Source of the DNA: a virus
Taxonomy: Duplodnaviria > Heunggongvirae > Uroviricota > Caudoviricetes
IMG/VR virus record: IMGVR_UViG_2534682160_000009
Reading direction: 5' to 3' (one strand)
Length of the DNA stretch: 6,544 nt
Position 1 is the stretch's first letter, and every line of letters begins with the position of its first letter. Made by a program: the position numbers. Shown piece by piece: positions 3,001 to 6,000 of the stretch.

Positions 3001-6000
3001 TGCACGGGCAAACATCCAGAAGCTGAAAACCATGATTAACGGATTCAGGGGTAAAAAATGAAACTGGCACCGAACGTAAAACAGCAGTCACGCGGCATAA
3101 AACACAAAGAAACAGAAGTCATTATTTTTGCGGGTAGTGATGCCTGGTCACACGCGAAACAATGGCAGGAACATGACGCGCGTATGGCCGGAGATAATGA
3201 GCCTCCTGTGTGGCTTGGGGAGCAGCAGTTATCAGAACTGGATAAGCTGCAAATTGTGCCGGAAGGCAGAAAATCCGTGCGCATATTCAGGGCCGGACAT
3301 CTTGCACCAGTAATGATCAAGGCGATTGGTCAAAAGCTGGCGGCGGCTGGTGTACAGGATGCAAATTTTTATCCTGAGGGTATGCACGGCAAGGAGGTGC
3401 AGAACTGGCGCGAATACCTGGCCCGTGAACGCCAGAATCTTTCTGATGGTCTGGTCATTGAGCTTCCGGTAAAGCAAAAGGCGCAACTTTCGCAGATGGC
3501 GGACAGTGAGCGCGCGCAGCTGCTTGCCGATCGCTTTGATGGCGTTTGCGTACATCCTGAAAGTGAAATTGTTCACGTATGGCGCGGCGGGGTATGGTGT
3601 CCGGTCAGCACAATGGAACTTAGCCGCGAAATGGTGGCGATCTATTCAGAGCACAGGGCCACTTTCAGCAAGCGCGTAATCAATAACGCCGTGGAAGCGT
3701 TAAAAGTTATTGCCGAACCAATGGGCGAGCCGTCCGGCGATTTGCTGCCGTTCGCCAATGGTGCGCTTGACCTGAAAACGGGGGAATTTTCCCCGCACAC
3801 GCCGGAGAACTGGATCACCACGCACAACGGCATTGAGTACACGCCACCAGCACCAGGGGAGAATATCCGCGACAACGCGCCAAACTTTCATAAATGGCTT
3901 GAGCACGCAGCCGGAAAAGACCCGCGCAAGATGATGCGTATATGTGCCGCGCTGTACATGATTATGGCGAACCGGTACGACTGGCAGATGTTTATTGAGG
4001 CCACCGGAGACGGCGGGAGCGGTAAAAGTACATTCACACACATAGCCAGCCTTCTGGCAGGGAAACAGAACACGGTAAGCGCTGAAATGACATCGCTTGA
4101 TGATGCTGGTGGACGTGCGCAGGTTGTCGGGAGTCGTCTTATCGTCCTGGCTGACCAGCCGAAATATACAGGCGAAGGAACGGGCATCAAGAAAATCACG
4201 GGCGGCGACCCCGTGGAAATTAACCCGAAATATGAAAAGCGTTTCACGGCGGTAATCAGGGCAGTGGTGCTGGCGACCAACAACAACCCGATGATATTCA
4301 CTGAACGGGCCGGAGGCGTGTCACGTCGTCGCGTGATTTTCCGCTTTGACAATATCGTTAGCGAGGCAGAAAAGGACAAGGATTTACCGGAGAAAGTCGC
4401 GGCTGAAATCCCTGTCATTATCCGCCGATTGCTGGCGAACTTTACCGACCCTGAGAAGGCACGGGCTTTACTACTGGAACAGCGTGACGGTGATGAAGCT
4501 CTGGCAATAAAGCAACAGACGGATCCGGTTATTGAGTTTTGCCAGTTCCTGAATTTTCTGGAGGAAGCACGCGGCCTGATGATGGGCGGCGGTGGCGATT
4601 CAGTGAAGTACACGACCAGAAACAGCCTTTACCGCGTCTATCTGGCGTTTATGGCATACGCAGGCAGGAGCAAACCGCTAAACGTAAATGACTTTGGCAA
4701 GGCTATGAAGCCAGCCGCGAAAGTTTACGGACATGAATATATTACGCGGAAAGTTAAGGGAGTAACGCAGACTAACGCAATAACAACAGACGATTGCGAC
4801 GCGTTTTTATAATTTTTTGCAATGGCTGTCTACCCTGTCTACCTGAGTAAAGAAAAATACATTTAATTCAGTATATTAACTTAGGTAGACAGCCTTTTTT
4901 CACTGTCTACCTACTATCTACCCTCTCTACCTGATTTTACCTGAATCAGACAGGGAGGTAGATACGGGGTAGATAGTGGATAAAAGCACTCTACCCCGCT
5001 GAAAGCCGCGCCATTACTGGCATGAGAGCCAGTAAGGTAGATAAGGTAGACAAGGGGAGGCACAACTCAAAACTTTTTAAACGAGGGGGTAAAAATAAAA
5101 ATGCGCACATCAGGAAAACTTAATAATCAGAAGAAGCAGCATAACCGCGCCATTGACCTTACAGAGCACTGGCTGAGAGTGGCGATAAAAATCATCGACC
5201 GCAACACGGGGGAAGGATACGCGAAAGCACATCCCGACCTGATAAGCGCATTCATGACAACGGCAGCTGCGAACTTTGCCACACTGACCGAACGGGAGAT
5301 TGCCGAAGCGGAGGAAGTGACAACCATCAACATTAAGTCCGGAGAGCAGACAGCATGACAGCACAGATAGCAGCTTACGGGCGGCTGGTGGACGACCCGC
5401 AGGTAAAACAGACCAGCAAGGGCACACCGATGACGCTGGCGCGTATGGCGGTCCCCCTTCCGTGCAGCCAGGCAGATGACGGAACGGCGACGATGTGGTT
5501 ATCCGTCCTGGCATTTGGCAGACAGGCCGAAGCACTGGAAAGGCACCGCAAGGGTGAACTCCTGAGCGTGGCGGGTAACATGCAGATCAGCCAGTGGACT
5601 GGGCAGAACGGAGAAACGCGGCAGGGCTGGCAGGTTATCGCAGACAGCGTAATCAGTGCGAGAACGGCGCGACCGGGCGGCAAAAAAGGCCAACAGGGCC
5701 AGGCTACTGACGCACTGAACAGGGCAAAACAACAGGCGGGGAATGATGATCCGTACGGGGATAACATACCGTTTTAAGCAACGAGTGACAGAAGCCGGAG
5801 CAATCCGGCTTTTTTACGGGTCCTCCTGGCGGGGTGGGCCTGAACACGGGGCGGGAGGGCGCGGAAAAAGGCGCATTTTTTGATTTTTATGGCACCATCA
5901 CCACCACTATAAGTTATTGATATGTTGAGAAATAAAAATTTTTAGTGTCGAATCAGGTTGTTTTTGTTCATCACCGGAACGTTCCCGAAAACATTTACAA

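Follow-up and report, generated by a model that had tools for sequence, protein, structure and literature searches.

A two-module repeat array directly downstream of pri-rep very probably serves an EcCICFT073-type phage-inducible chromosomal island as its replication origin

We analysed a 6,544-nucleotide stretch of viral DNA (IMG/VR record IMGVR_UViG_2534682160_000009, Caudoviricetes; hereafter the window), in which an array of short repeats occupies the space between an initiator gene, pri-rep, and a small downstream gene, orf85. All genes of the window read rightward on the plus strand (Table 1), and the same block is found in E. coli chromosomes as an island of about 10 kb that also carries a capsid-related gene. 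Some part of the window is matched in 1874 of 5426 complete E. coli genomes and the repeat region in 564. The order int, alpA, DUF4222, pri-rep, ori and ssb is the type set out for Gram-negative phage-inducible chromosomal islands (PICIs) by Fillol-Salom et al. (2018, ISME J; PMC6092414). Given int at one end, an alpA gene, a single direction of transcription, pri-rep and no complete phage, the context is that of an EcCICFT073-type PICI, and no homologues of psu, sid or delta were seen in a Pfam domain scan of the window. The element is a PICI of the EcCICFT073 type and not a P4-family satellite. A first-pass annotation of the window, made by a model from the sequence alone, had suggested that the array would define the specificity determinant of its satellite family; this part of it needs correcting, since the origin of an EcCICFT073-type PICI defines no new family and the TCTACC core of the repeats is common to at least 45 distinct E. 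coli and Shigella origin alleles, including those of islands with capsid and terminase genes.

An exact search found 12 TCTACC/GGTAGA sites in the window, 11 of them within 4829-5050, in agreement with the eleven cores in 226 bp that had been reported; the twelfth, at 1158 within int, is the sole core outside the cluster. Dinucleotide shuffles of the window (n = 200) gave a mean of 1.47 sites and a maximum of 5, with 12 reached in 0 of 200, and random placement of 12 sites would put at least 11 of them into a given 226-bp stretch with a probability of about 1e-15. The cores start at 4829, 4838, 4884(-), 4906, 4917, 4926, 4957(-), 4968(-), 4990, 5036(-) and 5045(-), the first of them 17 nt past the stop codon (4810-4812) of pri-rep, so that the array does lie directly past the gene as annotated. 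With > denoting TCTACC on the plus strand, the start-to-start spacings (9, 46, 22, 11, 9, 31, 11, 22, 46 and 9) give the layout > 9 > 46 < 22 > 11 > 9 > 31 < 11 < 22 > 46 < 9 <, which is an exact mirror image about 4939.5 (4939/4940) for 10 of the 11 cores. The direct pair at the left edge, the inverted pair at the right edge and the 40-bp AT-rich stretch were thus all recovered as described, with a spacing of 9 in both pairs. This AT-rich stretch (4844-4883) contains 17.5% GC, versus 57.5% in the mirror stretch 4996-5035 and 48.5% in the window. The repeat exceeds 6 bp, its consensus being c-T-g/a-TCTACC-c/t. Over the 45 TCTACC alleles, whose origins are only about 70% identical pairwise, conservation reached 0.93 in core columns versus 0.72 in the others. 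That the array is a chance or decaying repeat without function is excluded by these two results, namely a count never reached in the 200 shuffles and cores that are held while the spacers drift.

The Pri-Rep protein matches Pfam D5_N, DUF5906 and Pox_D5 as well as TIGR01613. Its residues 141-573 are 41% identical over 434 residues to residues 324-756 of P4 alpha, and its helicase part (residues 188-432) matches PriRep5 of SaPI5 (7OLA) with an E value of 4.5e-15. The protein had been called a primase-helicase. As to the primase half of this name, Pri-Rep lacks the zinc ribbon of P4 alpha, the protein has no sequence-detectable Toprim domain, and searches with Pfam, NCBIfam and hhalign were negative for homology between residues 1-150 and the primase region of P4 alpha. 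A single-sequence structure prediction of residues 1-150 was too poor (pLDDT 49) and was remade with an alignment; the N-terminal 150 residues in the predicted structure then showed a modest match to Toprim primase cores. 'Primase' is thus a weak label for Pri-Rep. Separately, some database proteins (P0035, P0036, P0047 and P0087) have the Pri N-terminal domain joined to an SSB or a PerC domain, and these are probably deletion products that lack the helicase and the origin.

The closest characterized relative is EcCICFT073. The 288-bp intergenic region 4813-5100 is identical to CFT073 (L008) 3997-4284 at 280 of 288 positions (97%), none of the 8 substitutions falls in a core, and all 11 cores are at the same places. 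The two Pri-Rep proteins are 98% identical, the origin in both lies directly 3' of pri-rep, and the neighbours (DUF4222, pri, orf85 and ssb) are the same. The insertion site differs, the window's closest chromosome match lying between cspD and clpS while the CFT073 copy adjoins phoQ. Fillol-Salom et al. placed pri-ori, pri-delta-ori and delta-pri inserts of EcCICFT073 in a temperature-sensitive plasmid; with pri-ori the plasmid was maintained, with delta-pri no colonies grew at the restrictive temperature and with delta-ori the colonies were significantly fewer, and both Pri-dependent replication and induction by helper phage were reported (PMC6092414). The published primers, which match with 0-1 mismatch except for rep-2c (4 apparent mismatches to both CFT073 and the window, making the distal end approximate), place the pri-ori clone at window 3014-5123 and the end of the pri-delta-ori fragment at 4816, so that the published 'ori' deletion corresponds to window 4817-5123. 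The clone-and-replicate experiment with the initiator that the first-pass annotation proposed has therefore in substance been published for a 97%-identical allele (PMC6092414). The origin is accordingly already known, having been described and tested in 2018 as the near-identical EcCICFT073 allele, and it is not new.

If the repeats are read by the initiator, the repeat word should change with the binding domain, a check that had also been suggested. Relatives were taken from an IMG/VR scan (a scan of genome contigs gave only 3 loci). Among seven E. coli alleles, the Pri proteins are 92-99% identical, and the intergenic regions only about 73-80% identical to the window. In about 90 related loci the layout is kept and the word is changed, to give TCTACC, TGTTCACC, TGTTCAT or GTATAC, that is, four words in four binding-domain classes; even distant relatives retain the array layout almost base for base despite another word. 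Examples are the Klebsiella element vB_KppS-Ant (Pri 41% identical to that of the window; word TGTTCACC), a Serratia locus (53%; TGTTCAC) and a Morganella locus with a full-length alpha-like protein (51%; TGTTCAT). Within one further IMG/VR group (53%) the word itself is split between GTGTTCAT and GGTATACAT: L086 and L089-L091 combine the binding-domain wing KTRGVV with GTGTTCAT, versus RARGMV and mostly GGTATACAT in L085, L087 and L088. The mostly-GGTATACAT origins retain a few GTGTTCAT copies, as if they were mid-way through a word change.

A finer association was seen inside the TCTACC group, which falls into two flank classes, cTgTCTACC and CCcTCTACC. In a scan of all columns of 70 Pri proteins, only positions 544 (N/A) and 547 (G/S) separated the two classes, with overlaps of 0.03 and 0.09, and both positions lie within the origin-binding domain. 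A control scan of the upstream DUF4222 protein and the downstream 85-amino-acid protein gave nothing comparable (best overlap 0.64 and 0.33). The sole exception among the 70 loci is L020, where an A544/S547 Pri accompanies a cTgTCTACC origin; this locus is likely a recombinant, and it suggests that the two Pri forms may cross-react. Pri 544 and 547 thus represent a candidate two-residue code for one repeat base. The co-variation of word and domain supports initiator-specific recognition of the repeats.

These results also bear on two readings in which the array would not be an origin. In the first, Pri-Rep or another protein of the island would act on the repeats as operators to control transcription of orf85, ssb and the packaging genes downstream, as could be suspected from an array that fills the intergenic region directly upstream of orf85 and from the conservation of the block 5067-5100 up to the start codon. 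However, a promoter and terminator scan stayed at chance level (0 promoter-like sites on the plus strand and a single site on the minus strand, itself at chance level), the word varies in step with the binding domain of Pri but not with the proteins on either side, the layout is that of the known P4 ori, and plasmid maintenance in the published test depends on the region (PMC6092414); operator function in place of origin function is thus very unlikely. The second reading takes the array for a site of packaging (cos/pac) or recombination (att) in which recognition words are repeated, and draws on the use of short repeats by terminases and integrases and on the integrase gene of the window. We consider it barely credible, as the cluster lies inside the island at a distance of about 3.6 kb from int, with only one core outside it, and as the word tracks the Pri C-terminus; moreover, the strain list of PMC6092414 has EcCICFT073 deleted for cos in two separate ways (delta-cos.1 and delta-cos.2), the positions of which were not mapped to the window.

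Comparison with P4, whose layouts were taken from the annotation of NC_001609 and read in the direction of alpha, divides the array into a left and a right module. P4 ori has the layout > 10 > 44 < 21 > 11 > 10 > with an AT-rich spacer, the same order and orientation and like spacing as in the left module, and the left module, P4 ori and three relatives align colinearly with a mean column identity of 71%. The P4 crr unit (< 13 > 18 > 44 < 9 < followed by the A/T tract AAAAAAAACTTTTTT) resembles the right module together with its own tract, AAAACTTTTTAAAC. In L073, L075 and L083, within the first 350 bp past the pri stop, the crr-like module comes first and the ori-like AT-rich module second, the two being 93 bp apart in L075, and the AAAACTTTTTAAAC tract stays with the right module where the order is swapped. 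The swapped order and the 93-bp separation therefore indicate that the origin consists of two separable modules. In P4, alpha lies between ori and crr, which are separated by about 4.7 kb, whereas in the window both modules are adjacent, within about 260 bp, downstream of the gene. The PICI origin can be read as P4 ori and crr placed side by side, for which no paper saying so was found in the limited library that could be searched. An origin built of movable modules akin to ori and crr of P4 bears on the relationship between PICIs and P4-like satellites.

The words of the two systems differ, as had been claimed for the core: the type 1 repeat of P4 (NC_001609) is CTGTTCACC versus CTGTCTACC here, a TC-to-CT swap. 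The P4 word TGTTCACC has 0 copies anywhere in the window, where the word is TGTCTACC, and it is the word used by some relatives of the window origin. P4 alpha is homologous in its helicase and origin-binding parts (41%; 1KA8), but Pri-Rep lacks its zinc ribbon and has no sequence-detectable counterpart of its Toprim primase domain. Binding of P4 alpha to the type 1 repeats is presumed here from the GenBank annotation and the name of PDB entry 1KA8. A further parallel is offered by the SaPI Reps, in which a C-terminal winged-helix domain reads iterons just past the gene and the AT-rich centre is melted without a loader (PMC9371898). SaPI origins are alike in having 6-12 short iterons directly downstream of rep and an AT-rich stretch flanked by oppositely oriented iterons; by contrast, their AT-rich stretch is the centre of the array, whereas that of the window is off-centre, inside one of the two modules, and the protein match to SaPI5 is limited to the helicase part.

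The likeness of the right module to crr raises the possibility that the array serves chiefly as an accessory element in cis, for copy control, pairing or incompatibility as crr does in P4, with initiation at only one module or outside the array. The right module is without an AT-rich spacer here and can lie about 93 bp from the left module in relatives, and the window is matched at up to 7 places per E. coli genome (median 1), with related islands sharing the core. Because both modules were removed together, the published deletion cannot tell them apart. Such a reading is compatible with origin function, however, and the layout of P4 ori, AT-rich spacer included, is complete in the left module. 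We regard a mainly auxiliary role as improbable.

One conserved part of the region is not an iteron. Within the right spacer, the 25-mer CGCTGAAAGCCGCGCCATTACTGGC is the best-conserved non-repeat part of the region and is as conserved as the iterons. An exact IMG/VR scan found it in about 60 PICI origins and in about 55 other loci, the latter flanked by 4+4 CCGCACA repeats and without TCTACC. In a phage collection the corresponding region falls within annotated replication protein O genes of lambdoid phages such as CUS-3, Gally, HF4s and Stx2a phages, where the 25-mer occurs verbatim or nearly so (L099-L109, and L214 (CUS-3) at about 1755-1780). Its position inside the O gene between CCGCACA repeats makes the 25-mer look like part of the origins of these phages, and an identity of 25 nt between PICI and lambdoid phage is not due to chance. 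Current models of PICI replication leave this element, common to a class of lambdoid phage origins, unexplained. We tentatively put forward, as a possible though not the favoured account, that the origin is a fusion of ori-like and crr-like P4 elements in which the 25-mer serves as a second, initiator-independent site for a replication factor of the host or the helper phage, coupling the island to the phage.

Taken together, the window region 4817-5100 is very probably the vegetative replication origin of an EcCICFT073-type PICI. For origin function, the support comes from the plasmid test published for the 97%-identical allele (PMC6092414). Homology and co-variation support Pri-Rep as the protein that binds, and with the 1KA8 match this upholds the earlier proposal of an initiator-bound iteron origin read by the initiator C-terminus. 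The C-terminal origin-binding domain of Pri-Rep would recognise repeats of about 9 bp (c-T-g-TCTACC) placed one or two helical turns apart in two mirror-image modules, with tandem copies 9-11 bp apart on one helix face. The bound protein would then assemble SF3-type helicase rings on both sides, on both mirror-image modules, and the assembled protein would open the 40-bp AT-rich spacer, allowing replication to proceed once the island is induced and excised. The choice of bound repeats, melting in the AT-rich spacer, the ring number and the primer source are all inferred in this scheme. Several points weigh against the origin interpretation or its details. The published ori deletion cut colony numbers without abolishing them (PMC6092414), and it concerned the EcCICFT073 allele and not the exact allele of the window. 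The loci are phylogenetically non-independent, so the co-variation represents perhaps 4-6 independent word changes. The flank base is perhaps not a strict determinant, because L020 pairs A544/S547 with the other flank class. Finally, the model leaves the GC-rich right spacer and the conserved non-iteron 25-mer unexplained.

Table 1. Genes, sequence elements and mapped stretches of the window (., no strand assigned)
Feature	Position	Strand	Basis or remark
int (integrase)	1-1239	+	
AlpA-family regulator	1571-1867	+	
DUF4222 protein	2762-3061	+	
pri-rep, initiator gene	3058-4812	+	584 aa: N-terminal domain, D5_N, SF3 helicase, C-terminal origin-binding domain
Origin-binding domain coding region (Pri residues 488-576, 89 residues, C-terminal)	4519-4785	+	phmmer versus PDB 1KA8, E 1.1e-6; Pfam Pox_D5
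Codons 544-547 (N-D-F-G)	4687-4698	+	Association scan; the residues at 544 and 547 go with the base found 2 nt 5' of the core
Stretch equivalent to deleted EcCICFT073 'ori'	4817-5123	.	Primers rep-3c and rep-2c mapped onto CFT073 (L008) and window
Left module, > 9 > [AT-rich] < 22 > 11 > 9 >	4826-4934	+	Layout and alignment; colinear with P4 ori
Tandem direct core pair (4829-4834, 4838-4843)	4829-4843	+	Exact search; each kept in 44/45 origin alleles
AT-rich spacer, candidate unwinding element	4844-4883	.	P4 ori spacer at same place also AT-rich
Single inverted core	4884-4889	-	Exact search
Three direct cores (4906, 4917, 4926)	4906-4931	+	Exact search
Degenerate copy TTTACC	4936-4941		After the three direct cores
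Right module, < 11 < 22 > [GC-rich spacer] < 9 <, then A/T tract	4948-5082	+	Resembles P4 crr unit
Two inverted cores (4957, 4968)	4957-4973	-	Kept in 45/45 and 43/45 alleles
Single direct core	4990-4995	+	Kept in 45/45 alleles
25-mer CGCTGAAAGCCGCGCCATTACTGGC, not an iteron	4997-5021	.	Conservation 0.9-1.0 over 45 alleles
Tandem inverted core pair (5036, 5045)	5036-5050	-	Exact search and allele conservation
A-tract/T-tract AAAACTTTTTAAAC	5069-5082	.	Fully conserved (45 alleles); travels with right module
orf85	5101-5358	+	85 aa, without family match; first gene downstream of array
ssb	5355-5777	+	

Other sequences of the region were also considered. The 34 bp before the orf85 start (5067-5100; CAAAACTTTTTAAACGAGGGGGTAAAAATAAAA) are nearly invariant over the 45 alleles and are in part a ribosome-binding site and in part the A/T tract of the right module. 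A hairpin of the right spacer (TTACTGGC/GCCAGTAA) is stable in the window; it is not a conserved structure because other alleles do not keep it, the folding energy being near 0 in many of them. An Rfam scan of 4700-5200 returned only sub-threshold matches to miRNA hairpins, caused by the palindrome. On the minus strand, 4975-4983 reads TTATCCACT, which agrees with the DnaA box consensus, TTATCCACA, at 8 of 9 positions; it is not conserved among the 45 alleles and is probably a chance match. In one E. coli island (L003; NZ_AP022177.1, 1-2494), pri is interrupted by IS1 and the origin downstream of it is intact, with 11 cores.
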